Of a stretch of DNA of 64,000 bases, positions 7,571-40,380 are shown piece after piece. Made by a program: the position numbers and the translations under genes. The notes below the pieces were generated by a model. It was not told the origin of the DNA. It saw only the letters and a list, made by a program, of their open reading frames with translations, and did not search any database. Within the stretch, counting starts at the first letter, position 1; each line of letters opens with the position of its first letter. Origin of the DNA: an uncultured Trueperaceae bacterium (GTDB taxonomy: Bacteria > Deinococcota > Deinococci > Deinococcales > Trueperaceae); NCBI GenBank assembly GCA_963727505.1, contig CAVSGP010000008.1:17704-81703 (forward strand). The letters run 5' to 3'.

Positions 7571-7598
7571 GCCGGCGGCGGGGAGACCCGCCGCCGGC
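7571..7598 (+). terminator. GC hairpin after the binding-protein gene (mRNA stabiliser or attenuator)
   Basis: GCCGGCGGCGGG-GAGA-CCCGCCGCCGGC; no U-tract. Confidence 0.55.
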
Positions 7599-7659
7599 CC
7601 TCCATGACGTCCACGAGCGGCGCGGGCTCGGCACGCCGGCGGCGCCGCAGGAGCCCAGC

Positions 7660-8598: not shown

Positions 8599-8599
8599 G

Positions 8600-9526: not shown

Positions 9527-9571
9527 GGCGGCGCGGGTCACGCCCGGCGCCGCCCCCGTCCCCTACGCACG

Positions 9572-9605
9572 ACGCCCGCCCCGGAGACGACTCCGGGGCG
9601 GGCGT
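9572..9605. terminator. Hairpin between convergent genes
   Basis: ACGCCCGCCCCGGAG-ACGA-CTCCGGGGCGGGCGT. Confidence 0.65.
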
Positions 9606-9643
9606 GTGTCGGCGGTGCCGCACGGGACTGGCGCGCGCCGGTG

Positions 9644-10672
9644 TCAGCCCGCCTGGCTCGACTGCGCCCAGATGTTGATGCCGGCGTCGGTGGCGTAGCG
9701 GTCGATCTCGGCGAGTTCGTCGTCGGTGAATTGCAGGTGGTCCAGCGCCGCCACGTTCTCCTCGAGCTGGCGGACGCTGCTGGCCCCGATCAGCACCGAG
9801 GTGACGCGCGGGTCGCGCAGCACCCAGGCGAGCGCCATCTGTGCCAGCGTCTGGCCGCGGCGCTCGGCGATGTCGTTGAGCGCGCGCACCTTGTGGAGGT
9901 TCTCCTCGCGTAGGAAGTCCTCCCGGAAGCTCTCGGCGCGCTTCACGCGGGCGTCGTCGGGTACGCCGCCGAGGTACTTGTCGGTGAGCAGACCCTGCGC
10001 CAGGGGCGAGAAGGCGATGCAGCCCACGCCCTCGTCCTCCAGCGTCGGCAGCAGCTCGGGCTCGACCCAGCGGTTGAGCATCGAGTAGGAGGGCTGGTGG
10101 ATCAGGCAGGGGACGCCCATCTCGCGCAGCAGGCCGACCGCCTCGCGCGTCTTGGCCGCCGAGTACGACGAGATCCCGACGTAGAGCGCCTTGCCCTGGT
10201 GGACGGCCGAGGCCAGTGTCCCCATGGTCTCTTCCAGCGGGGTGTTGGGGTCGAAGCGGTGGGAGTAGAAGATGTCGACGTAGTCCAGTCCCATCCGCTC
10301 CAGGCTCTGGTCCAGACTGGCGGTCAGGTACTTGCGCGACCCCCACTCACCGTACGGGCCCGGCCACATCAGGTAACCCGCCTTGGTGGAGATGACGAGC
10401 TCGTCGCGGTAGGGCGCGAAGTCCTCGGCCAGGAGGCGCCCGAAGTGCGTCTCCGCGCTCCCCGGAGGTGGGCCGTAGTTGTTCGCGAGGTCGAAGTGGG
10501 TGACGCCCAGATCGAACGCGCGGCGCAGGATCGCGCGCTGCGTCTCGATGGAGCGGTCCTCGCCGAAGTTGTGCCAGAGGCCGAGCGACACCGCCGGCAG
10601 GCGTAGGCCGCTGCTGCCCGTCTGTCGGTACTGCATCCGTTGGTAGCGGTCGGGAGCGGGTTGGTAGGCCAC
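9644..10672 (-). CDS. Aldo/keto reductase, L-glyceraldehyde-3-phosphate reductase (YghZ/Gpr/MgrA) type
   Basis: SLGLWHNFG, HFDLANNYGPPPGSAE, STKAGY, IHQPSYSM. GTG start at 10672 with AGGAGG RBS. Confidence 0.9.
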   Translation of the reverse strand: MAYQPAPDRYQRMQYRQTGSSGLRLPAVSLGLWHNFGEDRSIETQRAILRRAFDLGVTHFDLANNYGPPPGSAETHFGRLLAEDFAPYRDELVISTKAGYLMWPGPYGEWGSRKYLTASLDQSLERMGLDYVDIFYSHRFDPNTPLEETMGTLASAVHQGKALYVGISSYSAAKTREAVGLLREMGVPCLIHQPSYSMLNRWVEPELLPTLEDEGVGCIAFSPLAQGLLTDKYLGGVPDDARVKRAESFREDFLREENLHKVRALNDIAERRGQTLAQMALAWVLRDPRVTSVLIGASSVRQLEENVAALDHLQFTDDELAEIDRYATDAGINIWAQSSQAG

Positions 10673-10890
10673 GGGTACCTCCTGTGCGTGCACGCGTTGG
10701 GTGCCTTCACGGGCGCTGGGTCAGGGTTTCGGCGCTGGCATTGTACGACGGGGAGGGGCGTCGTCCCGTCGGCTGCGGGCCGGCGCGTGTTCCGAGGGCG
10801 GCTTTGGCGGCCCGTGAGCTGTGCTGGCGGTGACGGCGGCCGGCTGGAGGGTGTCCGCGACGCCTGGGGTCCGATGTACAGACTGGCTTT

Positions 10891-24981: not shown

Positions 24982-26013
24982 CTAGCGGGTGCGGGTGACC
25001 TTGCGCAGGTGGCGGGGCGCGTCCGGATCGATCCCGCGCGAGCGCGCCAGGCGTTCGGCGAGGAGCTGGCCGGCCACGACCAGCACGAAGCTCGCCGTGA
25101 CCTCGTGCAGCCCTTCGGGCAGCGCCGCCGACGCGGATGCGAGGCGCAACAGCGAGGGTGCGCCCGCCAGCACCGTCAGGTCGGCGCCGACCTCGCGCAG
25201 CCGCGAGGCGACCGCCTCGTTTCCACTCAGGCTGGCGTCCTCGGTCGCCAGCAGCAGCAGCGGGTCGCCGGCGTCCACCACCGCGATGGGGCCATGCTGG
25301 AACTCGGCGCTGGAGTACGCCTGGGCGTCGATGTAGGCCGTCTCCTTGAGCTTGAGGGCGGTCTCCAGCGCGGCCGCGAACGACAGGCCGCGCCCCAGCA
25401 CGTAGAGCCCATCGGCGTGCGTCAGTCGCAGCGCCGCCCGCTCCAAGGCGTCCACGTCGGCCAGCAGGGTCTCCAGCGCGGGCGGGACGGCGTCGAGCGC
25501 AGCGCGCAGATCGTCGTCGGCCGCCCACTCCGCCACCAGTCGCGCCAGCACCATCATCTGGCTGGTGAAGGTCTTGCTCGCCGCCACCGCCTGTTCCTCG
25601 CCGGCGTGCTGTGCCAGCGCGTGGTCGGCCTGCGTCGCCAGATGGCTGCCCGGCTGGTTGGTCACGGCCAGCGTGAGCGCGCCGGCCTCCTGCAGCGCGG
25701 CCAGACCTTCCACCACGTCGGTGCTCTCGCCGGACTGGCTGACGCCGATGCCGAGCGCGCCCTCGAGCCGCAGGCGGGCGCCGTAGAGGGTGAGCAGCGA
25801 GGGCGGCACGCTCGCCACCGGCAACCCCAGGCTGCGGCCCGCCAGATAGGCGAAGAAGGTGACGGCGTTGTCCGACGAGCCACGCGCCAGCGTGGCGACC
25901 AGCGGCACGTCGCGGCCGCGCAGCTCGCCCGCCAGCTCGGCAACGGACGGGTCCTGCAGGATGCGCGCCAGGACGGCGGGTTGCTCGGCGATCTCGCGTT
26001 CGAAGTGACTCAC
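24982..26013 (-). CDS. SIS-domain sugar-phosphate isomerase/deaminase (glucosamine-6-P deaminase, GlmD/NagB-II type)
   Basis: EIAEQP, ARGSS, SQSGES, AVAASKTF, ALKLKET, EFQHGP; no glutaminase domain. GTG start overlaps the murQ stop. Confidence 0.85.
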   Translation of the reverse strand: MSHFEREIAEQPAVLARILQDPSVAELAGELRGRDVPLVATLARGSSDNAVTFFAYLAGRSLGLPVASVPPSLLTLYGARLRLEGALGIGVSQSGESTDVVEGLAALQEAGALTLAVTNQPGSHLATQADHALAQHAGEEQAVAASKTFTSQMMVLARLVAEWAADDDLRAALDAVPPALETLLADVDALERAALRLTHADGLYVLGRGLSFAAALETALKLKETAYIDAQAYSSAEFQHGPIAVVDAGDPLLLLATEDASLSGNEAVASRLREVGADLTVLAGAPSLLRLASASAALPEGLHEVTASFVLVVAGQLLAERLARSRGIDPDAPRHLRKVTRTR

Positions 26014-26897
26014 GGGTCCTCCCGTCGATCGTCCAGTGCGTCGCGCACGCGGTCGCGGTGGCGCGCGAGAAGTGTGCGGGCCACCTCCGGGTCGACGCCC
26101 GCCTCCAGCATCACGATGGCCTCGCGGATCCCCCAGGCGGCGGCGGCCAGGGAACGTTCGGCAGCCTCGCGCGGCGCGCCGGTGGCCGCGCACACCACCT
26201 CCACCGCCCTTCGCCGGAGCTTGGCGTTGGTGGGGCGCATGCCGACCATCAGGTTCCGGTAGGCGCCGCCCGAGCGCACGAGCACGGCCGTGGACAGCGC
26301 GTTGAGGGCGATCTTCTGCGCCGTGCCTGCCGCCAGCCGGGTGGAGCCGGCCAGCACCTCCGGTCCGGTATCCAGCAGGACGCCGACCTCGGCCGCGGCG
26401 AGCAGCGGTGTGCCGGCGTTGTTGGCGATGCCGACGGTGAACGCGCCGCGTTCGCGGGCGGCGTGGATCACGCTGAGGGTGTAGGGCGTGCGGCCGCTGG
26501 CCGCGATGCCGAGGACCGCGTCGTCCGGCCCCAGGCCGGCGCCCGCGACGTCGCGGGCGGCCGCGTCCGTGTCGTCCTCGGCGTTCTCGACGGCCACGGC
26601 GCCGGCGCTGCCGCCGCCGGCCATGAGCACCACGGTGCGCTCGAAGCCGAAGGTGGGCGGCAACTCCGCGGCGTCCTGCAGGGCGATGCGGCCCGAGGTT
26701 CCGGCGCCCGCGTACACGAGCCGACCGCCACGCGACAGGCGCGCCTCGACGCCGATCGCCGCCCGCTCCAGCGCGTCGCGTGCGTTCCACGCGGCATCGA
26801 CCGCGCGCTGGCCGCCATCGACGACGGCATCGACGATGCGGCCGAGGGACCAGACGTCGAGGTCCCGGTAGTTGGGGTCGCGGCCCTCCGTGGTCAT
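26010..26897 (-). CDS. murQ: N-acetylmuramic acid 6-phosphate etherase
   Basis: TTEGR, YAGAGTSGRI...DAAELPPTFG, IAASGRTPY, TGPEVLAGSTRL, NLMV, NAKLRRRA. Confidence 0.93.
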   Translation of the reverse strand: MTTEGRDPNYRDLDVWSLGRIVDAVVDGGQRAVDAAWNARDALERAAIGVEARLSRGGRLVYAGAGTSGRIALQDAAELPPTFGFERTVVLMAGGGSAGAVAVENAEDDTDAAARDVAGAGLGPDDAVLGIAASGRTPYTLSVIHAARERGAFTVGIANNAGTPLLAAAEVGVLLDTGPEVLAGSTRLAAGTAQKIALNALSTAVLVRSGGAYRNLMVGMRPTNAKLRRRAVEVVCAATGAPREAAERSLAAAAWGIREAIVMLEAGVDPEVARTLLARHRDRVRDALDDRREDP

Positions 26898-27661
26898 GGC
26901 TCGCCCGCCCGCAGGTGCAGCACCATGCGGTACATGTCGCCACGATACGCACTGCGCACGAACTCGAAGGGCCGGCCGTTGCCGTCGTACGTGGTGCGCT
27001 CGAGCTCGAGCACCGGGACGTCGCGGCCGATCTGCAGCAACCGGCACTCCTTGGCCGTCGGAAGGCGCGCGCCTACGGCCTGCCGCGCTCGTGCCGGACG
27101 GATCCCGAACTGCGCTTCCAGGCAGCGGTAGAGGCTGCCGGTGCGCTCCAGCTCCTCGAGCGACAGCGCCGCGACATGCGGGGCCAGGTTCGCCGCCTGC
27201 AGGGCGAGCGGTGCGTCGTCGGCGCCGCGAAGGCGCTCGATGCGGAGCAGCGGTGCGCCCGCCGGCACGAGCAGGGCGGCGGCGGCGTCACGGTCGGCGG
27301 GGACCTCGGAGGACGCGAGCAGACGTGCGGTGGGATGGAACCCGAGGCCGCGGGCCTCGTCGGTGAAGCCCAGCACGCGATCGAGCACCTGTTCCAGGGG
27401 GTGGCCCCGGACGTACGTGCCCGAACCCTGGCGCTGCTCCACCAGGTCTCGGCGCTCGAGTTCCTCGAACGCGCGGCGCACGGTCATGCGCGACAGCCCG
27501 AGTTGCTGCGCCAGCTCGCGTTCGCTGGGCAGCGCCTGCCCGGGGCTGAGCGAGCCGTCCTCGATGGCCTGCTCCAGCGCCTGGCGGAGCTGCAGGTACG
27601 CCGGCGTCGGCAGGGCCTTGTCGATGGCGGGCGCGAACGTCATGGGACGCTCGGCCGCCAC
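26894..27661 (-). CDS. GntR/HutC-family regulator with UTRA domain (NagR/DasR-like); alternative start ATG 27643
   Basis: LPSERELA...SRMTVRRA...QGSGTYV HTH; C-terminal UTRA domain. Confidence 0.92.
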   Translation of the reverse strand: MAAERPMTFAPAIDKALPTPAYLQLRQALEQAIEDGSLSPGQALPSERELAQQLGLSRMTVRRAFEELERRDLVEQRQGSGTYVRGHPLEQVLDRVLGFTDEARGLGFHPTARLLASSEVPADRDAAAALLVPAGAPLLRIERLRGADDAPLALQAANLAPHVAALSLEELERTGSLYRCLEAQFGIRPARARQAVGARLPTAKECRLLQIGRDVPVLELERTTYDGNGRPFEFVRSAYRGDMYRMVLHLRAGEP

Positions 27662-27681: not shown

Positions 27682-27718
27682 GCCACTATTGTACCAATCC
27701 GCGCCGGGCCTCTATACT
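27682..27718. promoter_or_regulatory. Overlapping divergent promoters (gntR / sugar ABC)
   Basis: Plus strand TTGTAC-18 bp-TATACT; minus strand extended -10 TGG-TACAAT overlapping that -35. Confidence 0.6.
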
Positions 27719-27888
27719 TGACTCGTCCAACGAGGGTGCCGCGCGAGGTGCAAGCGGCCAAGCCGCCGGAGTCGGCCGGGCGACGTCCGCTCCTCCCGAA
27801 CGAACCGGCGGCGTGCTGTCCCCGACGGCGCCCTCGAGCGCTCTCCCGACCGCGATGCCGGCGGGGGAGGATCGATCGGAGGAAAGGT

Positions 27889-29121
27889 ATGAAGAGGATC
27901 GGTGGCATGCGTCTCCTGGCCGTTCTGCTCGGCCTGGTCCTGCTTGGCAGCGCGGCAGCGCAATCGCTGTCGTTCTGGAGCTGGCGTACGGAGGACGTCG
28001 ACGCCTACAACAGCTTCATCGCCGCGTTCCAGAAGGATCACCCCAACATCGACGTCACGTTCACGCCCTACAAGAACACCGAATACAACACCATCCTGTC
28101 GACCGCCATGCAAGGCGGCGGCGGCCCGGACATCGCCCACCTGCGCGCCTACGGCGGCATAGAACCACTGGCGGAGGCCGGCTTGCTGGTTCCCCTGGGC
28201 GACAAGGTGCCGGCGCTCGCCAACTTCGACCCCAACGTGCTCAAGGCCGCCACCGACCGCGCCGACGGCAAGGTCTACGGGGTGCCATTCGCGCTCCAGA
28301 CCATCCAGGTCCTGTACAACAAGGACGTCTTCGCCAAGCTCGGCCTCAGCGAACCCAAGACCTGGCAGGAGTTCCTCGACGTCGCGCAGAAGATCAAGGC
28401 GTCCGGGATCGACGCGCTCGCCAACGGCACCAAGGACCCATGGACGGTCGAGACGCTGTTCGGCGGCGTGGCCCCGGCGTTCTACGGCTGCAACGCCTTC
28501 TACGACAAGATGGCGGCCGGCACGTCCACCTTCGAGGACCCCGCCTTCAAGGGCGCGCTACAGCGCATGGTCGACCTCGAGCCCTACCTGGCGAGCAACT
28601 ACCAGGGCGTGGCCTACTCCGACATGCAGTCGCTGTTCGCCTACGGCCAGGCCGGCATGCTCATCGGCGGCAGCTACGAGCTCGGCACGCTCGCCCAGCT
28701 CGCTCCCGACTTCAACGTCGGCTCGTTCCTGATCCCCAACGATCAGGGCCAGACCTGCGAGACCTTCTACGTCGACGGCTCGTACGGCATCAACACGGCC
28801 AGCAAGCACCAGGACGCCGACGTGCAGTTCATCAACTTCCTGGCGAGCAAGGCGTACGGTCAGATGTTCACCGACACCCTGAAGCAGATCTCGGCGGTAC
28901 CCGGTGTCCTCCCGACCGATCCGGTACTGGCGCAGATGGCCGACCGGATGCACAGCGAAGGCACGCCCTACCTGATGCTCACGCTCTTCCGCTACGGTCA
29001 GCCCTCGGGCTCGACGCTGTTGCAAAACGAGATGCAGGCCGTGCTGGCCGGTAGCGAGACCGTCGACCAGGCGGCCGCCAACATCCAGCGCGGGGTGGCG
29101 ACCTGGTACACCTTCCAATAG
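27889..29121 (+). CDS. Sugar ABC transporter substrate-binding protein (probably amino sugar/muropeptide-derived)
   Basis: GGAGG RBS; signal peptide; GPDI, YGVPFA, YNKDVF, PKTWQEF. Confidence 0.88.
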   Translation: MKRIGGMRLLAVLLGLVLLGSAAAQSLSFWSWRTEDVDAYNSFIAAFQKDHPNIDVTFTPYKNTEYNTILSTAMQGGGGPDIAHLRAYGGIEPLAEAGLLVPLGDKVPALANFDPNVLKAATDRADGKVYGVPFALQTIQVLYNKDVFAKLGLSEPKTWQEFLDVAQKIKASGIDALANGTKDPWTVETLFGGVAPAFYGCNAFYDKMAAGTSTFEDPAFKGALQRMVDLEPYLASNYQGVAYSDMQSLFAYGQAGMLIGGSYELGTLAQLAPDFNVGSFLIPNDQGQTCETFYVDGSYGINTASKHQDADVQFINFLASKAYGQMFTDTLKQISAVPGVLPTDPVLAQMADRMHSEGTPYLMLTLFRYGQPSGSTLLQNEMQAVLAGSETVDQAAANIQRGVATWYTFQ

Positions 29122-29154
29122 CCCGGGTGGACGCGCGCATCGTGTCCCCCGCGT

Positions 29155-29184
29155 GGTGGGGTCGGGCTTCGGCCCGACCCCACC
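29155..29184 (+). terminator. Hairpin after the binding-protein gene
   Basis: GGGGTCGGGC-TTCG-GCCCGACCCC stem with a TTCG tetraloop. Confidence 0.55.
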
Positions 29185-29248
29185 CTCCTGATGGAGCAGC
29201 CGTGCCGGCAGGCCCGCTCCGGCCCGCCCGGGCGACGGGCGCTGCCCG

Positions 29249-30178
29249 ATGACGGGCGCGCGGGTGTGGTTCCGTCGCCACGGTCACCTGGTGGTGTTCC
29301 TGGCGCCGGGGTTGCTCCTCTACGGGCTGTTCATGGCCTACCCGCTGCTCACGTCGCTGTCGTACAGCCTGTCGGACTGGCACGGCCTGCTGCGCGGCGC
29401 CTTCTCGGGCTTCGCCAACTTCACCAAGGTCCTGACGCAGTGGCCGTACAACGTGCGCTTCTGGGGCGCGTTGAGTCACAACGCCCTGTTCTTCTTGTTG
29501 ACCTTCCTGATCCAGTCCACCCTGGGGCTGTTCCTGGCCGTGCTGCTGAGCCGCAAGTGGCGCGGCTTCGCCTTCTTCCAGGCGGCATATTTTCTTCCCT
29601 ACACGATGTCGATGGTGGTCGTGGGCTTCCTCTGGCTGCTGCTGCTCAACCCCACCTGGGGCCCCGTGGCACACGGCCTCAGGCTGGTGGGCCTGGGCGA
29701 GTGGGTGCAGCCGTGGTTGGGGCAACGCGGCACGGCCCTCGTCACCGTGATCCTGGTCAACTCCTGGCACTGGCTGGGCTTCCCGGTGCTGGTCTTCATG
29801 GCCGCCATCCAGGGCATCCCGCGCGAGTTCTACGAGGCCGGACTGGTGGACGGCGCCAACGACTGGCAGGGCTTCCGCTTCATCACCTTGCCGTTGTTGC
29901 TCCCCAGCCTCGCCATGATGTCGATCCTCACCTTCATCTGGGACTTCAACGCCTTCGAGCTCGTGTTCGTCATGCAGGGTGCGTCGGGGTCGCCGAACTA
30001 CGCCACCGACCTGCTGGCGACCCTCTTCTACCGGACCGCCTTCGGGGACCCCACCACCGGCGGCGAGCCCGGGCAGATCGGCCTGGCCTCGGCCATCGGC
30101 GTGCTGATGCTGATCATCATCGGTGCCGCCTCGGCCTTCGGCGTGCGCTTCACCCAGCGCAGCCAGACGGAGTATTGA
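29249..30178 (+). CDS. Carbohydrate ABC transporter permease
   Basis: EFYEAGLVDGAN EAA loop; multiple TMs. Confidence 0.9.
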   Translation: MTGARVWFRRHGHLVVFLAPGLLLYGLFMAYPLLTSLSYSLSDWHGLLRGAFSGFANFTKVLTQWPYNVRFWGALSHNALFFLLTFLIQSTLGLFLAVLLSRKWRGFAFFQAAYFLPYTMSMVVVGFLWLLLLNPTWGPVAHGLRLVGLGEWVQPWLGQRGTALVTVILVNSWHWLGFPVLVFMAAIQGIPREFYEAGLVDGANDWQGFRFITLPLLLPSLAMMSILTFIWDFNAFELVFVMQGASGSPNYATDLLATLFYRTAFGDPTTGGEPGQIGLASAIGVLMLIIIGAASAFGVRFTQRSQTEY

Positions 30179-30179
30179 C

Positions 30180-31043
30180 ATGCTTCCCCGCGCCCCTACG
30201 GCCCGGTCGCGCCCGCCAACAGCGCGCGTGCTCTCCCGCCTGCTGATCTACCTGGTGCTCGTGCTGCTGGCGCTGGGCTTCCTCTACCCCATCGCGCTGA
30301 TGGTGCTCGACGCCTTCAAGACGACACCCGAGATCTTCCGGAGCCCCTTCGGGCTGCCGTCGCACGTGGGCCTGGAGACCTTCCGCGAGGTCTGGCGCCG
30401 TGCCCACTTCGGCCTCTACCTGCGCAACAGCGTCCTGGTGACCGGAGGCTCGCTGGCGGTGCTGCTGGCCTGCGCGGCGCCCGCCGCCTACGCCATCGCC
30501 CGCTACCGCTTCCCGGTGCGGGGCCTGATCTTCCTGTTCTTCCTTGCCGGAATCATGGTACCGATCCGGCTCGGCATCCTCCCGCTCTATCTGCTGATGA
30601 AGCACCTGAGTCTGCTCGACACGCCGTTCTCGCTGATCCTCACGTACGCCGCGAGCGGCATGCCGATGTCGGTGTTCCTGCTGAGCACCTTCTTCCGAAC
30701 GCTCCCCAGCGATCTGGAGGACGCCGCGCGCATCGACGGCTGCAGCGAGTACCGCACTTTCTGGAGCATCATGCTGCCGCTGGTGCGCCCCGCCGTCGCC
30801 ACCGTGACGATCGTCAACGTCGTGCCCTGGTGGAACGACTTCTTCTTCCCGCTGCTGTTCCTGCAGAGCAACACCTGGAAGACGGTGCCGCTGGGCATGC
30901 AGATCTTCTTCGGTCAGCACCTGACGAACTGGAGCCTGGTGTTCGCCGGCATGCTGATGTCCAGCCTTCCCCTGCTTGTCGTCTACCTCCTGATGTCGCG
31001 GCAGTTCATCTCCGGCCTGACGTCGGGCGCGCTGAAGGGCTGA
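30180..31043 (+). CDS. Carbohydrate ABC transporter permease
   Basis: LEDAARIDGCS, WNDFFFP, C-terminal GALKG. Confidence 0.9.
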   Translation: MLPRAPTARSRPPTARVLSRLLIYLVLVLLALGFLYPIALMVLDAFKTTPEIFRSPFGLPSHVGLETFREVWRRAHFGLYLRNSVLVTGGSLAVLLACAAPAAYAIARYRFPVRGLIFLFFLAGIMVPIRLGILPLYLLMKHLSLLDTPFSLILTYAASGMPMSVFLLSTFFRTLPSDLEDAARIDGCSEYRTFWSIMLPLVRPAVATVTIVNVVPWWNDFFFPLLFLQSNTWKTVPLGMQIFFGQHLTNWSLVFAGMLMSSLPLLVVYLLMSRQFISGLTSGALKG

Positions 31044-31048
31044 GCTCC

Positions 31049-33316
31049 ATGGCGCCGATCGTCGCGCTCGGGATCGACCGCCTGGTGACCGACCCCGAGG
31101 TCTGGTTGCGGGGGCGCCGGGTGGCGCTGCTCGCCAACCATGCCTCGCTCACCTCCGAACACCGGCCCAGCGTGGACGCGCTGGGAGAGGCTCTGGGCGG
31201 CGGCCTGACGGCGTTGCTGACCCCCGAGCATGGGGCGAGCGGCTTCGAGGAGGATGCCACCGCCGTCCCGGACGGGCGTGACGCCCGCACCGGTCTCCCC
31301 GTCCACAGCCTCTACGGGCCGCGACGGCGACCCGACCCCGAGCTGCTGCGCCGCCTCGACGCGGTCGTGGTGGACCTGCGGGACGTTGGCGTGCGTTGCT
31401 ACACGTACGCCACCAGCGTGGCCCTGCTGCTCGAAGCCGCTCGCGAGACGGGCACCGAGGTGCTGGTGTGCGACCGGCCGTCGTTGCTCGGCCCGCGGGT
31501 CGACGGTCCCGCGCTCGACAGCGCGCGCCGTTCGTTCCTGGCGTATCTCGACGTTCCTCTCCAGCACGGCCTCACGCTGGGCGAGCTCGCCCGCCGCCAT
31601 GCGCGCCGGCTCGGCGGCGCGCCGCTGCGCGTGATCGCGGTCGAGGGGTGGCGCCGCGGCCAGCCGGATCCCGGGCCCTTCGTGCCCCCATCGCCCGGTC
31701 TGCCCTCGGCGGCTTCCGTGGCGTTGTACCCGGGGCTGGTCGCCCTCGAGGGCACCGGGCTCTCCGAGGGCCGTGGCACGCCGCTCCCCTTCGAGCTGGT
31801 GGGCGGTCCGGACGTCGACGGGCACGCGCTGGCCCGGGAACTGAACGCCCTCGGGCTGGGGGGCGTGTGGGCGCGGCCGGTGGCGTTCCGCCCGGACAGC
31901 GGCAAGCTCATGGGGCTGGCGTGCCAAGGGGTGCAGCTCCACCTCTCCGACCCCGCCGCGCTGCGGCCGCTCGAGCTCGGCGCCGCCGTGCTGCGCGCGC
32001 TGTTCGCGGCCGGGAAGGTGAGCTGGCGGCGGTCGGACGCCATGCCGTGGGCGCAGGCGCCGGACGCGGGGCGGCCCTGGCACGAGCCGGTGGAGGGCTT
32101 GCTGGTCGATGCCCTGTTGGGCGACGACAGTTTCCGTGCGGTGGCGGAGGGGCGGGTGTCGTTCGCGGATGCGGCCGGGCTCTGGGCGGAGCAGCACCAC
32201 GCCTACCTGGAGGCGTTGGACGGCGACCTGCTGTACCGTCCTGCACCTGCTGCATGGCCTGCAGGGACGTCGCAGGTGGCGTCGCGGGTGGCGCCGCATG
32301 GTCCAGCGCTCGGAGCGAGTCCGGCGCGGGCGGCGCCTCCGAGCGACGCGCGTCCGGCAGGGAACGACGCGCCGGCGGCGAGCCAAGGGACGCGTCAGGG
32401 CGGCCCGCTCGGCCTCGGCATCGACGCGGGCGGCTCGAGCACGCGCTGGCGGCTCGAGGGCCCCGCCGGGGCGGTGGCGGAGGGGCGGTTGCCAGCACTC
32501 GCCGGGCACCTCTACGACGACGCCGGGCGCAGCGATGCCGGCGCCCGGTTGAGCGAGCTGGCGGCGGCGGTGGCCGCCGCCTCGGCCGAGCCGCCGACGG
32601 CGGTGGTGGCCGGCGTCACGGGCCTGGCGCAGGCAGGCGCAGAAGCCACCTGGCTGCGTCGCGAGCTGGCCGCCGGGATCGGCCTTGCCGAAGCGGCGGT
32701 GACCGTGCTCGACGACATCGAGCTGGCCCTCAGGGCGGCCTTCGCGGGGGACGACGGTGTGCTGGTGTACGCCGGCACCGGTGCGATCGCCGTCGCCCGC
32801 GCGGGCGGTCAGCGGCTTCGCGCGGGTGGCCACGGCTACCTCCTGGACGACGATGGAGGGGGCTTCTCGATCGGGCGCGCGGCGCTCCGCGCCGTGCTGC
32901 GCCAGACCGACGCCCGTGGCAGCACGCCGGACACACCTCTCGCGCACCGGCTCTACGGCGCGATCGGGGGTGCCGACTGGGACAGGGTGCGCGCCTACGT
33001 CTACGGCGGCGGTCGCGGCGCCGTGGCGGCGCTGGTGCCGCTCGTCGTGCAGGCGGCGGCCGACGGGGACGGCGAGGCGCGCGCGATTCTGACGTGGGCC
33101 GGAGAGGAGCTCGCGCGCCTCGCCCGCCTCCTGCTCCAGCGCTGCGGCGAGCCGCGCCCGGTGGCTCTGGCAGGGGGGGTGGCCAAGGTCGGAGGCGCGC
33201 TCGAGGCGAGGTTCCGGGGCGCGCTGCCGGCGGGTACGGAAGTCCGCGTGCTCACGGACGAACCTGTCCGTGCGGCGGCCCGCCTGGCGTGGGTAGCAGC
33301 GCAGGGCGCGCGATAA
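31049..33316 (+). CDS. Fusion: exo-beta-N-acetylmuramidase NamZ (DUF1343) + BadF/BadG/BcrA/BcrD-family amino-sugar kinase
   Basis: N-terminal: ALLANHAS, PEHG, SLYG, DLRDVGVRCYTY, DRP, HGLTLGELA, PSPGLP, SEGRGT. C-terminal: GIDAGGSSTR, YAGTGA, RAGGHGYLLDDDGGG, LAGGV. Single uninterrupted ORF. Confidence 0.85.
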   Translation: MAPIVALGIDRLVTDPEVWLRGRRVALLANHASLTSEHRPSVDALGEALGGGLTALLTPEHGASGFEEDATAVPDGRDARTGLPVHSLYGPRRRPDPELLRRLDAVVVDLRDVGVRCYTYATSVALLLEAARETGTEVLVCDRPSLLGPRVDGPALDSARRSFLAYLDVPLQHGLTLGELARRHARRLGGAPLRVIAVEGWRRGQPDPGPFVPPSPGLPSAASVALYPGLVALEGTGLSEGRGTPLPFELVGGPDVDGHALARELNALGLGGVWARPVAFRPDSGKLMGLACQGVQLHLSDPAALRPLELGAAVLRALFAAGKVSWRRSDAMPWAQAPDAGRPWHEPVEGLLVDALLGDDSFRAVAEGRVSFADAAGLWAEQHHAYLEALDGDLLYRPAPAAWPAGTSQVASRVAPHGPALGASPARAAPPSDARPAGNDAPAASQGTRQGGPLGLGIDAGGSSTRWRLEGPAGAVAEGRLPALAGHLYDDAGRSDAGARLSELAAAVAAASAEPPTAVVAGVTGLAQAGAEATWLRRELAAGIGLAEAAVTVLDDIELALRAAFAGDDGVLVYAGTGAIAVARAGGQRLRAGGHGYLLDDDGGGFSIGRAALRAVLRQTDARGSTPDTPLAHRLYGAIGGADWDRVRAYVYGGGRGAVAALVPLVVQAAADGDGEARAILTWAGEELARLARLLLQRCGEPRPVALAGGVAKVGGALEARFRGALPAGTEVRVLTDEPVRAAARLAWVAAQGAR

Positions 33317-33358
33317 CGCTTCGATACCGCCGGGTCTGGCGCGCGGCCGCGAGCCTAC

Positions 33359-34342
33359 TCAGCCGTGCGCCAGACCCTCCCGCACGAAGCGGAGCTGCTC
33401 CAGCACGTGGAGCGTCTCGCCGCCCTCGTGCCCGTTGAAGCGGTACAGGCGCAGGGTCTTGGGTCCGGCGTAGTGGTTGTAGGTGGCGTACACCGTCGAC
33501 GGCGGTGAGATGAGGTCCATCAGGCCCGCCGAGAACAGGGCGCGCGCCGAGGCCCGGGCCGCGAAGTTCATGCCGTCGAAGTAGGCCAGGGTCGCGAAGA
33601 CGGCGCCCACCTTGCCCTTGTGGACCTTGCAGTAGCCGGCGATCTCGGCGTAGGGCGCAGCGTCGGTGATGGTGGCGGCGCGCTCGAAGTGGCACAGGAA
33701 GGGCACGTCCGGCAACGCCAGCGGCAGGTCGGGCACCAGGCCCGCCAGCGCCAGCGTGAGGCCGCCGCCCTGGCTCCGGCCGGTGGCCGCCACGCGTGCC
33801 GGGTCGACCGCCGGATGGGCGCGCAGGGTGCCCAGCGCCCGGACCGCGTCGGTGTACAGGCGACGGAAGTAGTAGGTCTCCGGGTCGAGGATGCCCGCCG
33901 TCATGAAGCCGGGATGGTGCGGCCCGGTGGCGTTGGGGTCGTCCATGGGATCGGCCGTGGCTCCCTCCAGCCAGGCGCTCCCCTGGCCGCGGGTGTCCAT
34001 CACCAGCGTGGCGAAGCCGGCGCTGGGCCACAGCAACCAGTCGGCGGGGAAGCCGCGACCGCCTCCGTAGCCGATGAACTCCACCATGCCCGGTAGCGGC
34101 CCGTCGCGGAGCTTCGGCAAGAGCAGCCAGCCGCGCACCGGCTGGCCCGCGAAGCCGGCGAAGGTGACGTCGAAGGCGTCGATGGTTGCCAGACCGGCGT
34201 CGAACGGTTCGAAGCGCGGCTCCCAGGCGCGTGCTTCGGCGTCGTCGAGGGTTGCTTTCCAGAAGGCATCGAAGTCATCGGGTGCGGTGAGGGGCGGGAG
34301 GTAGCGTTCGAGTTCCTCCAGGGGCAGGTCGAAGACAGCCAT
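33359..34342 (-). CDS. Acetylxylan esterase / cephalosporin-C deacetylase (CE7, AXE1)
   Basis: FDLPLEEL, P.DFDAFW, RGQ, GRSQGG, D..ISPPST, GHE. Confidence 0.92.
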   Translation of the reverse strand: MAVFDLPLEELERYLPPLTAPDDFDAFWKATLDDAEARAWEPRFEPFDAGLATIDAFDVTFAGFAGQPVRGWLLLPKLRDGPLPGMVEFIGYGGGRGFPADWLLWPSAGFATLVMDTRGQGSAWLEGATADPMDDPNATGPHHPGFMTAGILDPETYYFRRLYTDAVRALGTLRAHPAVDPARVAATGRSQGGGLTLALAGLVPDLPLALPDVPFLCHFERAATITDAAPYAEIAGYCKVHKGKVGAVFATLAYFDGMNFAARASARALFSAGLMDLISPPSTVYATYNHYAGPKTLRLYRFNGHEGGETLHVLEQLRFVREGLAHG

Positions 34343-34423
34343 GGGGCTTCCTTCCTCGCGCGGTGTGCCGCGGGCACGCCCAGGCTACCCGGTCGAGCGG
34401 CGCTTCTCGGCGCTGCGTGCGGG

Positions 34424-34613
34424 TCACACGTCTCGCCCGCGCAGGGTGGGGTCCAGCAGGTCCCGCATGCGCGGCATGCTTGTGCGTGGGCTGTCCTATC
34501 ACGTCTCGTCCCGCGCAGGGTGGGGTCCAGGAGGTCCCGCATGCGCGGCATGCTTGTGCGTGGGGCCTACACGTCCCTCCCGCGCAAGGTCGGGTCCAGG
34601 AGGTCCCGCATGC
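34424..34613. repeat. Three tandem ~70-bp copies of the dppC 3' end
   Basis: Copies at about 34424-34497, 34498-34566 and 34567-34613 (the last is inside the CDS). On the minus strand each encodes MRDLLDPTLRG. Confidence 0.9.
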
Positions 34614-35415
34614 CGTCGCCGAAGAGATTGAAGCCCAGCGAGGCCAGCAGGATGGCGAGTCCCGAGACGATCGACACCCAGGGCGAGAGGAGCATGTAGT
34701 CGCGGCTCTGCGAGAGCATCAGGCCCAGCGAGGGGGTGGGCGGCTGCGTGCCGAGGCCGAGGAAGCTCAGGCTGGCCTCGACCAGGATGGCGGTGGAGAG
34801 CGAGAGCGTGGTCTGCACCAGGATGGGCGCAAGGATGTTGGGCAGCACGTGGCGCATGATGATGCGCCCACCTCCCGCTCCCACCGCGCGGGCCGCGGCG
34901 ACGTAGTCCCACGACAGCACTGTCAGTGCGGGCCCACGGGCGAGCCGCGCGAAGATCGGCGTGTAGACGATGCCGATCGCCAGCGCCGTGTTGGTGCCGC
35001 CCGGACCCAGCACGGCCAGCACCGCGATGGCCAGCAGGATGATGGGGAATGCCAGCAGCACGTCCATGAGGCGCATCAGCAGGCGGTCGACCCAGCCGCC
35101 GAGGTACGCGGCGACAAGGCCGATGGTGGAGCCCAGCAACGTCGACAGGGCCACGGCACCGAACGACACCGCGATGGAGGTGCGGTAGCCGAAGAGGATG
35201 CGCGCCAGGGTGTCCCGGCCGAAGTTGTCCGTGCCGAGCAAGTGGTGGAGGCTGGGTCCCTCGAAGCGCTCCAACACGCTCTGGTGCAGAGGGTCGATGC
35301 CGACGACCCAGGGTCCGACGGAAGCGGCCAGCGCGACCAGGACAGCCAGCACGAAGCCCAGCATGCCGACGCGGTTGCGCCACAACCGCGCCAGGAAGTG
35401 ACGCACGGGCGCCAT
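34567..35415 (-). CDS. Peptide/Ni ABC transporter permease (DppC-like)
   Basis: HLLGTDNFGRD, RHVLPN, LSFLGLG, FNLFGDGMRDLLDP. Confidence 0.92.
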   Translation of the reverse strand: MAPVRHFLARLWRNRVGMLGFVLAVLVALAASVGPWVVGIDPLHQSVLERFEGPSLHHLLGTDNFGRDTLARILFGYRTSIAVSFGAVALSTLLGSTIGLVAAYLGGWVDRLLMRLMDVLLAFPIILLAIAVLAVLGPGGTNTALAIGIVYTPIFARLARGPALTVLSWDYVAAARAVGAGGGRIIMRHVLPNILAPILVQTTLSLSTAILVEASLSFLGLGTQPPTPSLGLMLSQSRDYMLLSPWVSIVSGLAILLASLGFNLFGDGMRDLLDPTLRGRDV

Positions 35416-36365
35416 CACCCGTACTCCACCCGCGGGTCGATCCAGGCGTAGGCCAGGTCGACGAGCAGGTTGACCACCACGAACACCGCGGTGATGGCGA
35501 GGACGATGCCCTGGATGAGCGGGTAGTTGCGCTGGTTGATGGCGCCGATGATCAGACGTCCGATGCCGGGGATGGCGAACACCTGCTCGATGACCACCAC
35601 GCCCGACAGCAGGTATCCGAGCTGCACGCCGATCACCGTGACGACCGGGATCATGGCGTTGCGCAGGGCGTGCTTGTAGAGCACCGGCCGTTCCGCCAGG
35701 CCCTTGGAGCGCGCCGTGCGGACGTAGTCGCTGTTGAGCACGTCGAGCAGGCTCGAGCGCAGGATGCGCGTCAGCCCCGCGATCATCGGTAGCGACACGG
35801 CCACCACCGGCAGCGCCATGCGCGCCAGGTTGCCGAGCGGATCCTGGCCGAACGGGACGTACCCGATCGCCGGCCAACCCGGCAGATAGAGCGAGAAGAC
35901 GAGCAGCATCAGCACGCCGACCCAGAAGGTCGGCAGCGTCAATCCCACGATCGACAGCACCCGAACCACCAGGTCGCTGGCGCTTCCGCGCGCGCGGGCC
36001 GACAGGACCCCGAGTGGGAAGGAGAGCACCAGCGCCAGCAGCAGCGCCAGTCCCGTGATCTCGAGGGTGGCGGGCGCGCGCGCCAGGATCTCGGCGCTCA
36101 CCGGCCGCCCGGTCCAGATGCTGGTACCCAGGTCGCCGTGCAGCACGCCCGTCAACCAGCGCCAATATTGCGCGTGGATGGGCAGGTCGAGGCCCAGGCT
36201 GTGGCGCAGCGCGGCGACCCGGTCGGGCGTGATGTCGGTGTTGGCCCCCAGCATGATCTCGACGGCGTCCCCGGGGATGAAGCGCACCATCAGGAACACC
36301 AGGATCGAGACGCCGAGTAGCACGAAGGCGAGGTCGATGAGGCGGCGGGCGATGTAACCGATCAT
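35415..36365 (-). CDS. Peptide/Ni ABC transporter permease (DppB-like)
   Basis: IPGDA, LGLD, GDLGTS, DYVRTARSKG, HALRNA, EQVFAIPGIG. Confidence 0.92.
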   Translation of the reverse strand: MIGYIARRLIDLAFVLLGVSILVFLMVRFIPGDAVEIMLGANTDITPDRVAALRHSLGLDLPIHAQYWRWLTGVLHGDLGTSIWTGRPVSAEILARAPATLEITGLALLLALVLSFPLGVLSARARGSASDLVVRVLSIVGLTLPTFWVGVLMLLVFSLYLPGWPAIGYVPFGQDPLGNLARMALPVVAVSLPMIAGLTRILRSSLLDVLNSDYVRTARSKGLAERPVLYKHALRNAMIPVVTVIGVQLGYLLSGVVVIEQVFAIPGIGRLIIGAINQRNYPLIQGIVLAITAVFVVVNLLVDLAYAWIDPRVEYG

Positions 36366-36486
36366 GCGGGCACGGGTGTCATGCGCGAACCTTGAGCGCT
36401 CGGGGGCGCGAGAGGGGTGGGGGCGCACACGCCCCCACCCCAGGCTAGCCCGAAGGGCCGCTTCGAGCGCGACGGGAACGGCGGCG

Positions 36487-37987
36487 CTACGGCAGGCTCA
36501 CCTCGCGCAGGTAGCGCAGGCCGCGCGTGGGCATCTGCTGGAAGCCCTGGACGTTGTCGCGCAGGCCCGTGAAGAGCGTCCCGTAGGCGATGTGGACGAT
36601 GGGTCCGGTGCAGGCGAGCTGCTTCTGGAGGTTGTCGTAGATCGCCTGGCGCTGGCCCTTGTCGGCGGTGGTGCGGCCCTGGTCGAGCAGGGTGTCGACC
36701 GACGGGTCGCTGAACTTGAAGATGTTGGTCGAGCCGCCGGTGTGGAACGTGCGGTAGAGGTAGCCGTCGGGGTCGGTGGAGCCGCCGTTCAGGCTCACGA
36801 ACATGTCGAAGTTCGAGTTCTTCCAGTCCTGGACGAACTTGCCGAACTCCTCCACATCGACCTTGGCGTCGATGCCGACCTGCGCGAGCTGCGCCTGGAG
36901 CACCTGGGCGGTGTCGGACACCTCCTTGATGGTGCCGAAGGTGATGATGGTGGTCTTGAAGCCGTTGGGGTAGCCGGCGTCGGCCAGCAACTGCTTGGCC
37001 TTCGCCACGCTGGGCTGGTAGCAGGGGAACTGCGAGACCGGCACGGCCCAGTCCTTCAGCGCCGGGCTGAGTGGGCCGCCCGGCACGGCGTTGCCGAGGT
37101 AGACGGCCTGCACGATGTCGGAGCGGTTCACCGCGTAGTTGATGGCCTCACGCACGCGCGGGTCGTCGAAGGGCTTGCGGCTGACGTTGAGGCCGAGCAG
37201 CGAGTAGGCAAGATCTTGCGTGCCCATCACGGTGACGCCGCCGGCGTTCTTGAGCGTCTGCGCGGTGACGGGGTCGACCGTGGGGAGGAGCTGGTAGGTG
37301 CCGGTGCGCAGCCCCGCGGCCCGGGTGGACGCCTCGGGCACGATGTTGAACTTGAGCTCGGCCACCTTGGGCTCGCCCGGCCGGTAGTAGTCGGGGTTCG
37401 CCTTGAGCAGCACGTAGGTGTCGGGGACGACCTTGTCGAGCTCGAAGGGGCCGGTGCCGACCGCCACCTTCTGCAGGTTGCCGTTGGCCTCGACGACCTC
37501 CTTGGGCACGACGTAGAGGTTGGTGAGGTTGGCGAGGAAGGGAGCGAACGGCTCCTTCAGCGTGAAGCGCACCTCGTACGGTCCCGTGGCCTCGATCTTG
37601 GACACCTCGCTGAAGCGGCTGGCCTGCGGCGAGCCGGTGTTGGGGTCCATGATGCGGTCGTAGGAGTAGACGACGTCGGCCGACGTCATCTGCGCGGCCG
37701 TTGTGGAACTTGACGCCCTGGCGCAGCTCGAACGTGTAGCTCAGGCCGTCGGGCGACACCGACCACGACGTCGCCAGCGCGGGCTCGAGCTGGAGCTTGC
37801 TGTTGACCTCCAGCAGCCCCTCGTAGATCTGGTCGACCACGGCGAAGGACGAGAAGGCCGTGACGATGTCGGGGTCGAGACCGACCGGCGATTGGTCGAC
37901 GGCGATCTCGAGCGTTCCCTGTTGCGCATACGCCAGGCTCATGGCGGCGACGAGCGCTGCTACGAGCAGACCGATACGGATTCGCAT
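36487..37987 (-). pseudogene. Peptide ABC substrate-binding protein (DppA-like), split by a 1-nt insertion (real or sequencing error)
   Basis: Signal peptide...LDP...YEGL...LRQGVKFHNG in one frame continues as AQMTSADVVYS...VGTGPF in another. Removing one C at about 37696 restores the frame. GGAGG RBS. Confidence 0.85.
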
Positions 37988-38119
37988 ACCAACCTCCTTC
38001 TGCGATGGTGGCAGGGAAGCCCGTCCCCCACGCAAGCCACGGCTGCCGACGGAACAATTGCGACGCGCCTAGTGTACCATTCCCAGACCAGTCGATTCAA
38101 TCGTGCTAGCGTTGCGGCC

Positions 38120-39205
38120 ATGAACCATGCAGCAGCGGCCGAGGCCCGGGGCCGGGACGCCGTGGCAGCCGCCCTCGAGGCGGCGGTCGCGGACGGGACG
38201 GTGCCGGGAGGCGTGCTCCTGGTCGGCGGCGCCGACCACGTCTGGGACCCCGTCGTCGCCGGCGTACGGCGCTACGGGGGGGAGCGCGTGACGCGCGACA
38301 CCCGCTACGACCTCGCCTCGCTCACCAAGGTCGTCGGCTGCCTGAGCGCCCTGTTGCACCTCCTCGACGCCGGTGCGCTGACCCTGGACGACCCGGTCCG
38401 GAAGTTCTTCAGCAACGCCGGCTGGTTCCAGGAACCCTCGCTCGGCGACGTTCGCCTCGAAGCGCTCGCCACCCACGTGTCGGGCCTGCCGGCGTGGCGG
38501 GCGCTGTTCGCGCAGGTCACAGGGCGCCGCATGGCCCTGGCCAGCGTGTTGCAGACGCCGCTCGAAGGGCCCGCCGACCGCTTCCGCTACTCCGATCTCG
38601 GGGTCATCGTCCTGACGGCCGTCATCGAGCGCGTCGCCGGGGAGCGGATCGATGCGCTGCTGGCGCGCGAAGTCTTCGAGCCGCTCGGCATGGACCGCAC
38701 CGGCTACGGCCCGCTCGACCCCGGCCTCCCCGTCGCCGCCACCGAGGACGACGGCCTGCGCGGTGGTGTCCTGCAGGGCGTCGTCCACGACGAGAACGCC
38801 TGGGCGTTGGAGGGTATCTCCGGGCACGCCGGCCTGTTCGCCCCGGCTTCCGACGTGCTCGCCTTCGGCCTGGCCTGGCTGCGGCTCCAGGCGCCGTTCG
38901 CCTCGGAGGGCACGCTCCGGTCGGCCCTGCGCGATCGCTCCGGCGGCGAGGGCGCTCGTCGCGGCCTGCTGTGGCGCCTGGGCGAGCCCGATGGGTTCTT
39001 CGGGCCGGAGACGACGGAGGCGGCGTTCGGGCACACCGGCTTCACCGGCACCAGCCTGGTGGTGGAGCCGCGTCAGGGCTGGACGGCCGCCCTCCTCACC
39101 AACCGCGTGCACCCGACCCGCGAGGCGGGTGCCGGGATCGACGACCTGCGCAGGCGCGTGCACGGCCTGGTGGCCGGCGCGTTCGACGAGGAGGCGCTGC
39201 GATGA
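38120..39205 (+). CDS. Serine hydrolase, beta-lactamase/AmpC family (AmiE-like muramyl-peptide amidase by context)
   Basis: SLTK (SxxK), YSD, GVVHDENA, GHAGLF, GHTGFTGT; no signal peptide. Confidence 0.85.
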   Translation: MNHAAAAEARGRDAVAAALEAAVADGTVPGGVLLVGGADHVWDPVVAGVRRYGGERVTRDTRYDLASLTKVVGCLSALLHLLDAGALTLDDPVRKFFSNAGWFQEPSLGDVRLEALATHVSGLPAWRALFAQVTGRRMALASVLQTPLEGPADRFRYSDLGVIVLTAVIERVAGERIDALLAREVFEPLGMDRTGYGPLDPGLPVAATEDDGLRGGVLQGVVHDENAWALEGISGHAGLFAPASDVLAFGLAWLRLQAPFASEGTLRSALRDRSGGEGARRGLLWRLGEPDGFFGPETTEAAFGHTGFTGTSLVVEPRQGWTAALLTNRVHPTREAGAGIDDLRRRVHGLVAGAFDEEALR

Positions 39206-40380
39206 CGGATTCCGAACAGGGTGCGGCCGTTCCCGGCGATCTGGCAGCGATGACGGTGCTCGGCCTCATGTCGGGCACCTCGCTGGACGGGGTGGACACG
39301 GTCACCGTACGCCTGGCGCGGCGCGGCGGCCGGCTCGACTGGGAGGTGCTGGCGCGCGCTTCCCACCCCTACGACGATGCCCTGCGCGAGCGCTTGCAGC
39401 GCGCCATCGATCCGGCGCGCTCCGACGTGATCCTGTTGACCGAGCTCCACCAGGAGGTGGGGCGGGCCTACGCCGACGCGGCGGCTTCGGCCGCCGCGCG
39501 CCACCCGCTCGACCTGGTGGGCCTCTCGGGCCAGACCGTGTACCACATCCCCCGAGCCGACGAGGAACGGGGCTGGCACGTGGTGAGCACCCTGCAGCTG
39601 GGGGAGGCGAGTGTCGTGACCGAGCGTTGCTCGGTCGTGACGGTGTCGGACTTCCGGCAGGCGGACCTGGCGGCGGGCGGTCAGGGGGCGCCGATGGTGC
39701 CCTTCGCCGACCTACAGCTCTACCACCGGCCAGGGGAGCGGATCGCCGTGCAGAACATCGGCGGCATCGGCAACGTCACCGTGCTGCCGGCCGACGGCGA
39801 CCCGGCGGCGGTGCAGGCGTTCGACACCGGTCCCGGCAATTGCCTGATGGACGAGGCGATGGAGTTGCTGTTCGACGAGCCGTTCGACGATCAGGGGCGG
39901 GTGGCGGCCTCGGGGCGCGTTCTGGGCGACGCCCTGCAGCGGCTGCTCTCCGAGCCCTACTTCGAGCTCCCGCCACCCAAGACCACCGGCCGCGAGCTGT
40001 TCACGCTTCCGCGCGCCATGGAGCGCGGCGGTCTCGAGGGCGCGGCCCCCGCCGACGTGGTCGCGACCCTGAACGCGTTCACCGTGGCGTCGATCGCGCA
40101 GGCGTACGAACGCCACGTGCTGCCCGGAGGCCTCGATGAGGTGCTGATCGCGGGCGGCGGCGCCCGCAACCCGGTCCTGGTCGAGGGACTGCGCCGGCGC
40201 CTGCCGGTGCGGGTCCGTACCTTCCGGGAGGCCGGCTACCAGGACAAGGACCGCGAGACGCTGGCGATGGCGGTGATGGCGTTCATGGCGTTCCACGGGG
40301 AGCCGAACGTGCTGCCCGCAGCGACGGGCGCGCGGCATCCGGTGATCGCGGGGAAGGTGTGCCGGCCCTACCGGGGTTGA
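39202..40380 (+). CDS. anmK: Anhydro-N-acetylmuramic acid kinase
   Basis: GLMSGTSLDGVD, GQTVYH, DFRQAD..AGGQGAPMVP, NIGGIGN, FDTGPGN, PPKTTGRELF, GGGARN. Confidence 0.96.
   Translation: MTDSEQGAAVPGDLAAMTVLGLMSGTSLDGVDTVTVRLARRGGRLDWEVLARASHPYDDALRERLQRAIDPARSDVILLTELHQEVGRAYADAAASAAARHPLDLVGLSGQTVYHIPRADEERGWHVVSTLQLGEASVVTERCSVVTVSDFRQADLAAGGQGAPMVPFADLQLYHRPGERIAVQNIGGIGNVTVLPADGDPAAVQAFDTGPGNCLMDEAMELLFDEPFDDQGRVAASGRVLGDALQRLLSEPYFELPPPKTTGRELFTLPRAMERGGLEGAAPADVVATLNAFTVASIAQAYERHVLPGGLDEVLIAGGGARNPVLVEGLRRRLPVRVRTFREAGYQDKDRETLAMAVMAFMAFHGEPNVLPAATGARHPVIAGKVCRPYRG

Follow-up and report, generated by a model that had tools for sequence, protein, structure and literature searches.

O-acetylation of N-acetylmuramic acid (MurNAc) at C6 is widespread and blocks lysozyme and lytic transglycosylases, and the acetyl group takes up the very hydroxyl at which salvage kinases or phosphotransferase transporters have to place a phosphate. 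The dedicated de-O-acetylases that we found described are exported SGNH-type Ape enzymes acting on the wall itself; Ape1 was first proposed as an acetyl-xylan-esterase homologue (family CE3) in a non-xylanolytic bacterium, a precedent for the logic followed here (PMC1199599). MurNAc loci are described in Bacillus subtilis, as the murQ-murR-murP-amiE-nagZ-namZ operon (PMC8054146), and in Escherichia coli, as the murQ/murP region. Enzymes of carbohydrate esterase family 7 (CE7), the acetyl xylan esterases/cephalosporin C deacetylases, act inside the cell, discriminate very little between acetyl positions and form caged hexamers that admit only small substrates (PMC6282417). These three papers are cited throughout for the passages that concern the enzymes in question. 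Here we describe a CE7 gene on a 64,000-nucleotide (nt) stretch of DNA from an uncultured Trueperaceae bacterium of the Deinococcota (contig CAVSGP010000008.1 of assembly GCA_963727505.1, positions 17,704 to 81,703), hereafter the window. The gene lies in a predicted MurNAc salvage island, and its linkage to recycling genes hints that the esterase strips acetyl groups from imported wall fragments.

Genes were called by codon-position GC content and then by Pfam and NCBIfam profiles. The CE7 open reading frame (ORF), on the minus strand, has a third-position GC of 0.91, typical of real genes in a genome of ~70% GC. The sole Pfam match of its product is AXE1 (PF05448), with residues 1 to 320 on model positions 1 to 318 of 321 (348.6 bits against a cut-off of 21; E 3.2e-104), which makes it a full-length member of the CAZy CE7 family. 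Its nearest solved relative is Thermotoga maritima TM0077 (1VLQ; E 3.8e-120), which aligns from Met1 to the C-terminus with one two-residue insert and ~57% identity, as counted by hand on the printed alignment. All signature motifs are in place: RGQ at 118 to 120, GRSQG at 188 to 192 (Ser190), GLMD at 273 to 276 (Asp276) and GHEGG at 304 to 308 (His305); once the insert is counted, they align with Ser188, Asp274 and His303 of TM0077 (numbering of PMC6282417). The RGQ, GxSQG and HE motifs, the triad positions and the lack of a signal peptide are thus shared with TM0077 and with the CE7 esterases of B. subtilis and B. pumilus. The initial annotation had called an intact CE7 esterase without a signal peptide, and the comparison bears this out: because the protein begins level with TM0077 Met1, it has no N-terminal leader, whether extension or hydrophobic segment, as judged from the alignment rather than by a dedicated signal-peptide predictor. 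It is the only CE7 protein of its source genome (3.26 megabases (Mb), 15 contigs, 97.4% complete), a second match being marginal at 18.4 bits. On these sequence features the gene encodes a canonical, presumably broad-specificity cytoplasmic CE7 acetyl esterase, an ordinary member of its family, and from the ~57% identity to TM0077 a hexameric cage with buried active sites would be expected.

The chemistry that we propose below is the one proposed for Ape1/Ape, SGNH enzymes likened to CE3 of CAZy, in which removal of the MurNAc 6-O-acetyl group lets a C6-dependent enzyme act (PMC1199599). The folds, by contrast, are unrelated, SGNH in Ape and a CE7 alpha/beta hydrolase in the window, whose Pfam match is to AXE1 only and not to an SGNH/GDSL family. 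Ape is periplasmic and acts on the sacculus, whereas the window protein is predicted to be cytoplasmic and would act on small imported fragments; and unlike Ape it has neither an export leader nor linkage to patA/patB, its genome containing no match to MBOAT or Acyl_transf_3. To judge by its sequence, then, the window enzyme is not an Ape member and would at most work like one.

What is unusual is the persistent place of CE7 in the MurNAc salvage island of one Deinococcota lineage. When species-representative genomes were scanned with CE7 as the query, 79 loci were recovered, some of them on short contigs, and 16 window proteins were compared with these by tblastn (L numbers denote loci and G numbers genomes). 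CE7 was found in 74 of the loci, and recycling genes are adjacent in three (L003, L004 and L006), all from Deinococcota metagenome-assembled genomes of the window's genus. Among the 128 genomes of the family, with CE7 counted at E<=1e-40, CE7 occurs in 36, NamZ_N in 44 and both in 14, and half of these 14 (G000, G003, G005, G006, G007, G019 and G033) have CE7 and NamZ within 10 kilobases (kb) of each other. CE7 stands beside recycling genes in 11 genomes from three genera of one Deinococcota family: nine of ten in the window's genus (G000, G001 as a fragment, G002, G003, G005, G006, G007, G008 and G009), plus G019 and G033, each from another genus. G006 and G008 have identical CE7 sequences and so do not count as independent rows.

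At least six gene orders occur among the linked genomes. CE7 is convergent with the NamZ-kinase gene in the window's own genome, G003, G006, G008, G033 (where only the CUT1/NamZ-kinase operon adjoins it) and G001 (where the CE7 fragment adjoins the kinase); in G019 it follows the NamZ-kinase gene directly and co-directionally after an 82-nt spacer. Elsewhere it is flanked by ClC and AnmK (G007), directly precedes GntR-MurQ-NagB-II-like on one strand (G009), stands ahead of a NagB-II-like gene and then PEPCK (G002), or faces NamZ (G005).

The island around CE7 (Table 1) is, as predicted from its gene content, a complete cytoplasmic MurNAc salvage set, comprising MurQ, AnmK, a NamZ-kinase, an AmiE/PBP4B-like protein, a NagB-II-like protein, a GntR regulator and two importers. 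A salvage locus had been recognised from the letters alone, and the profiles agree: MurQ and AnmK both exceed their cut-offs, and NamZ_N and NamZ_C are both present. For the route to MurNAc-6-phosphate (MurNAc-6-P), AnmK is the above-threshold match; the best match of the BadF-type kinase domain, NagK_SO3507, reaches only 64 bits against a cut-off of 370. NamZ is an exo-beta-N-acetylmuramidase, which we take to be GH171, and the beta-lactamase-fold protein is a candidate MurNAc-peptide amidase. The placement of CE7 downstream of Dpp-type permeases also holds, the minus-strand series running from the family 5 binding protein (SBP5) through DppB and DppC to CE7; the gap between DppC and CE7 is 224 nt, and CE7 converges on the NamZ-kinase ORF across 42 nt. 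The island encodes no ATP-binding cassette (ABC) ATPase, and Dpp-type ATPases (DppD/F) are absent from the island of every relative; in G006, a 3-kb insert between CE7 and DppC consists of MarR, a DrrA-type ATPase and a helix-turn-helix gene, not DppD/F. The NamZ-kinase, the beta-lactamase-fold protein and CE7 all begin without a signal peptide, and fragment processing is therefore taken to be cytoplasmic.

Table 1. Features of the salvage island in the window, in order of position.
Feature	Position	Strand	Remarks
Double-SIS protein resembling glucosamine 6-phosphate deaminase NagB-II	24982..~25950	minus	below equivalog cut-off; start approximate
MurQ, MurNAc-6-phosphate etherase	~26010..26900	minus	NF003915, 325.8 bits against cut-off 168; start approximate
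GntR/HutC-type regulator (GntR + UTRA domains)	26894..27661	minus	first gene of GntR-MurQ-NagB-II-like operon
CACTATTGTACCA, 13-nt palindrome-like site	27684..27696	plus	divergent GntR/binding-protein promoter region
CUT1 sugar-type ABC importer	27718..31043	plus	binding protein 27718-29121, permeases 29249-30178 and 30123-31043
NamZ_N + NamZ_C fused to BadF/BcrAD-type sugar kinase	31049..33316	plus	single ORF, ~755 amino acids (aa); Pro/Ala-rich linker; no signal peptide
CE7 acetyl esterase (AXE1 family)	33359..34342	minus	327 aa; ATG start; Ser190/Asp276/His305 intact; no signal peptide
Tandem repeat, ~74 nt, 2.8 copies, 87% matches	34414..34613		overlaps DppC 3' end; fills most of DppC-CE7 gap
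Dpp/Opp-type ABC permeases	34567..36428	minus	DppC-like 34567-35451, DppB-like 35415-36428; upstream of CE7, co-directional
Dpp-type (family 5, SBP5) binding protein	36487..37987	minus	Sec signal peptide; frame broken by one extra base near 37692
Beta-lactamase-fold protein	38120..39205	plus	best match PBP4B; fold family of B. subtilis AmiE; no signal peptide
AnmK, anhydro-MurNAc kinase	39202..40380	plus	NF007148, 407.3 bits against cut-off 387; start 39202 or 39250

The families MurQ, NamZ and the AmiE-type beta-lactamase fold are common to this island and to the MurNAc loci of B. subtilis (PMC8054146) and E. coli. The differences lie in how the sugar is taken up, how the genes are likely controlled and what has been added: ABC importers and a kinase stand in place of the MurP phosphotransferase transporter, the regulator is of GntR/HutC rather than MurR/RpiR type, and AnmK and the CE7 esterase are additional. 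The window NamZ is predicted to be cytoplasmic and is fused to a kinase, whereas B. subtilis NamZ has a signal sequence, which was removed for cytoplasmic expression in E. coli (PMC8054146). The words 'esterase' and 'O-acetyl' each occur zero times in that founding paper on NamZ, which also leaves natural fusions of the enzyme unmentioned, its single 'fusion' being a His-tag construct. A cytoplasmic NamZ-kinase fusion would couple cleavage between MurNAc and N-acetylglucosamine (GlcNAc) to phosphorylation at C6, and 18 other NamZ matches, spread over 17 genomes of the family, lie in open frames of 649 aa or more, a length compatible with the same fusion.

We propose, tentatively and with somewhat less than even confidence, that CE7 was recruited into the island in one Deinococcota lineage as an accessory enzyme that removes O-acetyl groups, in the cytoplasm, from imported MurNAc sugars of probably foreign origin. 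To judge from gene content, wall fragments (MurNAc-GlcNAc disaccharides, anhydro-muropeptides and stem peptides) would enter through the two ABC importers and, given that the catabolic enzymes read as lacking signal peptides, would be processed in the cytoplasm. O-acetylation takes place at the C6 hydroxyl of MurNAc (PMC1199599), the same hydroxyl that is phosphorylated toward the MurQ substrate MurNAc-6-P (PMC8054146). Because the acetyl group sits on that hydroxyl and MurQ requires MurNAc-6-P, the route would be blocked at C6: by established chemistry, 6-O-acetyl-MurNAc should not be phosphorylatable there by the NamZ-fused kinase and could not reach MurQ. CE7 would take the O-acetyl group off the imported mono- or disaccharide, releasing acetate. 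By analogy with characterised relatives, such an ester is a plausible CE7 substrate because the family combines low positional specificity with a size-restricting hexameric cage; activity on O-acetyl-MurNAc itself is purely what we infer. The freed sugar would then pass through the kinase, MurQ, NagA (encoded elsewhere) and the NagB-II-like protein to fructose-6-phosphate, as the family assignments suggest. A NagA-like gene does lie elsewhere in the genome, at 211.1 bits, just under the cut-off of 225.65. We also considered CE7 as a substitute for NagA and rejected it, since this NagA-like gene exists and CE7 is an O-esterase family.

A stronger form of the proposal, possible and distinctly doubtful, holds that CE7 is dedicated to 6-O-acetyl-MurNAc, freeing C6 for the kinase fused to NamZ, and so would be the missing cytoplasmic step for feeding on foreign O-acetylated, lysozyme-resistant peptidoglycan. 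Within the literature covered by full-text searches, listings and abstracts (subscription-only papers lay outside this scope), CE7 is assigned to wall recycling in none of the papers found, and in none is an enzyme given for dealing with O-acetylated fragments once they have been imported. If true, the proposal would fill a gap in the recycling map with a post-import de-O-acetylation step, provide the intracellular CE7 family, long a puzzle, with a second class of natural substrate outside plant-polysaccharide breakdown, and show by what route environmental bacteria can exploit wall debris protected by acetyl groups. If not, the locus would caution that a gene may persist in an island through many rearrangements in one lineage without working with it. 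We regard the association of CE7 with salvage as a modest, testable lead.

A number of observations weigh against the proposal. The remaining 71 of the 74 CE7 loci, from Chloroflexota, Actinomycetota, Planctomycetota/Verrucomicrobiota and others, have no recycling neighbours, with the proviso that some contigs are short. In seven of the 14 family genomes that encode both, CE7 and NamZ lie apart, on different contigs or 0.14 to 1.2 Mb distant. Credible CE7 is absent from all 80 metagenome NamZ loci recovered by a profile-guided scan (767 kb), MurQ being found in 16 of them and an AmiE-like gene in nine. Thirty of the 44 NamZ-bearing family genomes have no CE7 at E<=1e-40, and the pathway therefore runs without it; two of the 30 carry a weaker CE7 signal (a contig-end fragment in G001, a 36%-identical homologue in G021), and some of the 30 have NamZ frames of fusion length, for example G108, which is 100% complete. 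As to the source genome, it contains no match to an OatA-type (Acyl_transf_3) or PatA-type (MBOAT) acetyltransferase, and no GH25 muramidase was found in it. Because no such acetyltransferase was detected, its own wall is probably not O-acetylated, recycling of own-wall O-acetyl groups is unlikely, and any substrate would more likely come from fragments of other bacteria's O-acetylated walls, which fit better.

Nor do the regulatory elements and the protein itself tie CE7 to the island. The site CACTATTGTACCA is a candidate operator for the GntR/HutC regulator; L082, L086 and L091 have it without a mismatch and L114 with one. With up to two mismatches allowed, the window has this single copy, and a three-mismatch copy lies at 38067-38079, in the divergent region between the SBP5 and AmiE-like genes. 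Twelve sequences were scanned, among them the window segment, and none has such a site ahead of CE7. What does precede CE7, in more than one gene order, is a GGTAGCCT(T)GGGCGT-like element (window ~34360-34400, L083:1540-1670, L091:975-1110 and the L092 spacer), with TTGACG 18 nt upstream of it in L083 and L091 and no -35-like part in the window. The element is possibly CE7's own promoter, and it seems to move with the gene from one location to another. Consensus scanning of 33200-34700 added little: it gave no promoter-like site and a single terminator-like one, which falls within the CE7 coding sequence but on the opposite strand. Among the public sequencing runs listed, none was of RNA. Comparison of linked with unlinked CE7 proteins identified just 10 discriminating alignment positions, none of them at the catalytic motifs; T112 and A186 sit a few residues ahead of RGQ and GRSQG, respectively. 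We had considered an active-site specialisation of the linked clade and, on these positions, set it aside.

Finally, the link may rest on one evolutionary event. In a tree of 66 CE7 sequences, seven linked ones fall in a clade with SH-aLRT support of 99 and G019 falls elsewhere; forcing all eight linked sequences together raised the log-likelihood by 7.18 over the free quick tree (p-AU 0.606). Since a single origin is not rejected, the 11 linked genomes are not independent. Two separate recruitments of CE7, suggested by the position of G019 in the quick tree, are unsupported, the constrained single-clade tree being the better one. The claims of the initial annotation that concern function thus survive in part. 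Co-occurrence of CE7 with recycling genes is not unique to this genome, extending over three genera and several gene orders, but it is confined to one lineage, and most CE7 loci and all of the metagenome NamZ loci are unlinked. A role for CE7 in salvage gains from a linkage that reaches beyond one genome and from a xylan role that finds no support, and loses by the restriction to a single lineage, the many NamZ relatives that have no CE7 and the lack of an own O-acetyltransferase. The record of CE7 as a component of the locus is mixed, the gene being kept in 11 genomes and not found at the threshold in most NamZ-bearing members of the family.

Alternatively, CE7 may be a generalist housekeeping esterase without a specific part in wall salvage, inserted once beside the island in an ancestor and kept nearby by descent and local rearrangement. 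Such an origin is compatible with the tree and with the apparent mobility of CE7 as a small cassette that includes its upstream element and, in three genomes, a divergent PGA_cap gene. It also agrees with the lack of any catalytic-motif residue that sets the linked enzymes apart, and with relatives that mostly have the pathway and no CE7. The neighbourhoods of 16 unlinked CE7 genes (67 ORFs) are likewise heterogeneous and often housekeeping in character, with FGGY kinases, LacI regulators, glycosidases or housekeeping genes and no recycling family. Descent alone accounts less readily for position: through at least six arrangements, with identity among the CE7s falling to 60%, and in genomes of ~2 to 4.4 Mb, the gene is always one or two genes from a recycling gene, its immediate neighbour in eight of the 11 genomes being the NamZ or kinase gene. 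We therefore hold passive retention to be a genuine possibility, if a doubtful one. The same linkage data would serve equally if CE7 belonged to the island and acted on another acetylated sugar delivered by the CUT1 importer, such as 6-O-acetyl-GlcNAc units or O-acetylated amino-sugar oligosaccharides. The very low positional specificity of CE7 enzymes would allow this (PMC6282417), and in G033 the CUT1 importer and the NamZ-kinase are the sole island neighbours of CE7. No island gene, however, points to a substrate other than MurNAc, for MurQ, AnmK and NamZ are all MurNAc-specific families, and we consider a different sugar unlikely.

The accepted role of the CE7 family (PMC6282417), here the deacetylation of imported acetylated xylo-oligosaccharides or other plant-derived ones, is suggested by the ~57% identity to TM0077 and by those unlinked relatives that adjoin FGGY kinases, LacI regulators or glycosidases, and is nonetheless very improbable for the window gene. 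TM0077 adjoins xylanase and beta-xylosidase genes (PMC6282417), whereas no xylan-related gene lies within 10 kb of the window CE7, as the initial annotation had observed of its surroundings, and the 97.4%-complete genome has no match to GH10 or GH43 and no xylose isomerase above cut-off, so that all three xylan/xylose families go undetected genome-wide. The uronate cluster at the left of the window is more than 20 kb away, behind unrelated genes. We give still less credit, close to none, to CE7 as a deacetylase of cephalosporin-type beta-lactams that works with the neighbouring beta-lactamase-fold protein. CE7 enzymes do show cephalosporin C deacetylase activity (PMC6282417) and the beta-lactamase-fold gene is only 3.8 kb from CE7, but the two are never adjacent in the orders seen, where CE7 follows NamZ-kinase, MurQ or AnmK genes, and the fold protein best matches PBP4B, which fits muropeptide processing.

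Several further observations concern the surroundings of CE7. A gene for PGA_cap (CapA-like, PF09587) is divergent from CE7 in G009, G002 and G005 (L003:2169-3218, L083:565-1551 and L091:1-981), as if the two moved as a pair; the window's own genome has no match to it. The ~74-nt tandem repeat contains GCATGC-CGC-GCATGC palindromes, and metagenome contigs show several 1-nt deletions there. At an unlinked CE7 gene from another family of the same order (G044), the adjacent frame, L097:6302-9523, matches Acyl_transf_3 and ABC permease domains and has a GH2 mannosidase-like gene next to it.

Compared with its counterpart in G003 and with the intact orthologues of L004, L086 and L092, the family 5 binding-protein gene is longer by one base near 37692. 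Contigs from all four metagenome runs compared are without this base, one of them with a single other mismatch over 876 nt, so that the broken frame probably reflects either an error of assembly or a mutation peculiar to the strain. The cluster at the left of the window (154-10720) comprises uronate/sugar-acid genes unrelated to the island: tagaturonate epimerase UxaE, LacI, a tripartite ATP-independent periplasmic (TRAP) transporter (DctP, DctQM), a CUT1 importer and an aldo-keto reductase. At the right end, where GC falls to 0.60-0.67, the plus-strand ORF 60459-61766 has MmeI helicase-spacer and methyltransferase domains and is a possible mobile restriction-modification gene.

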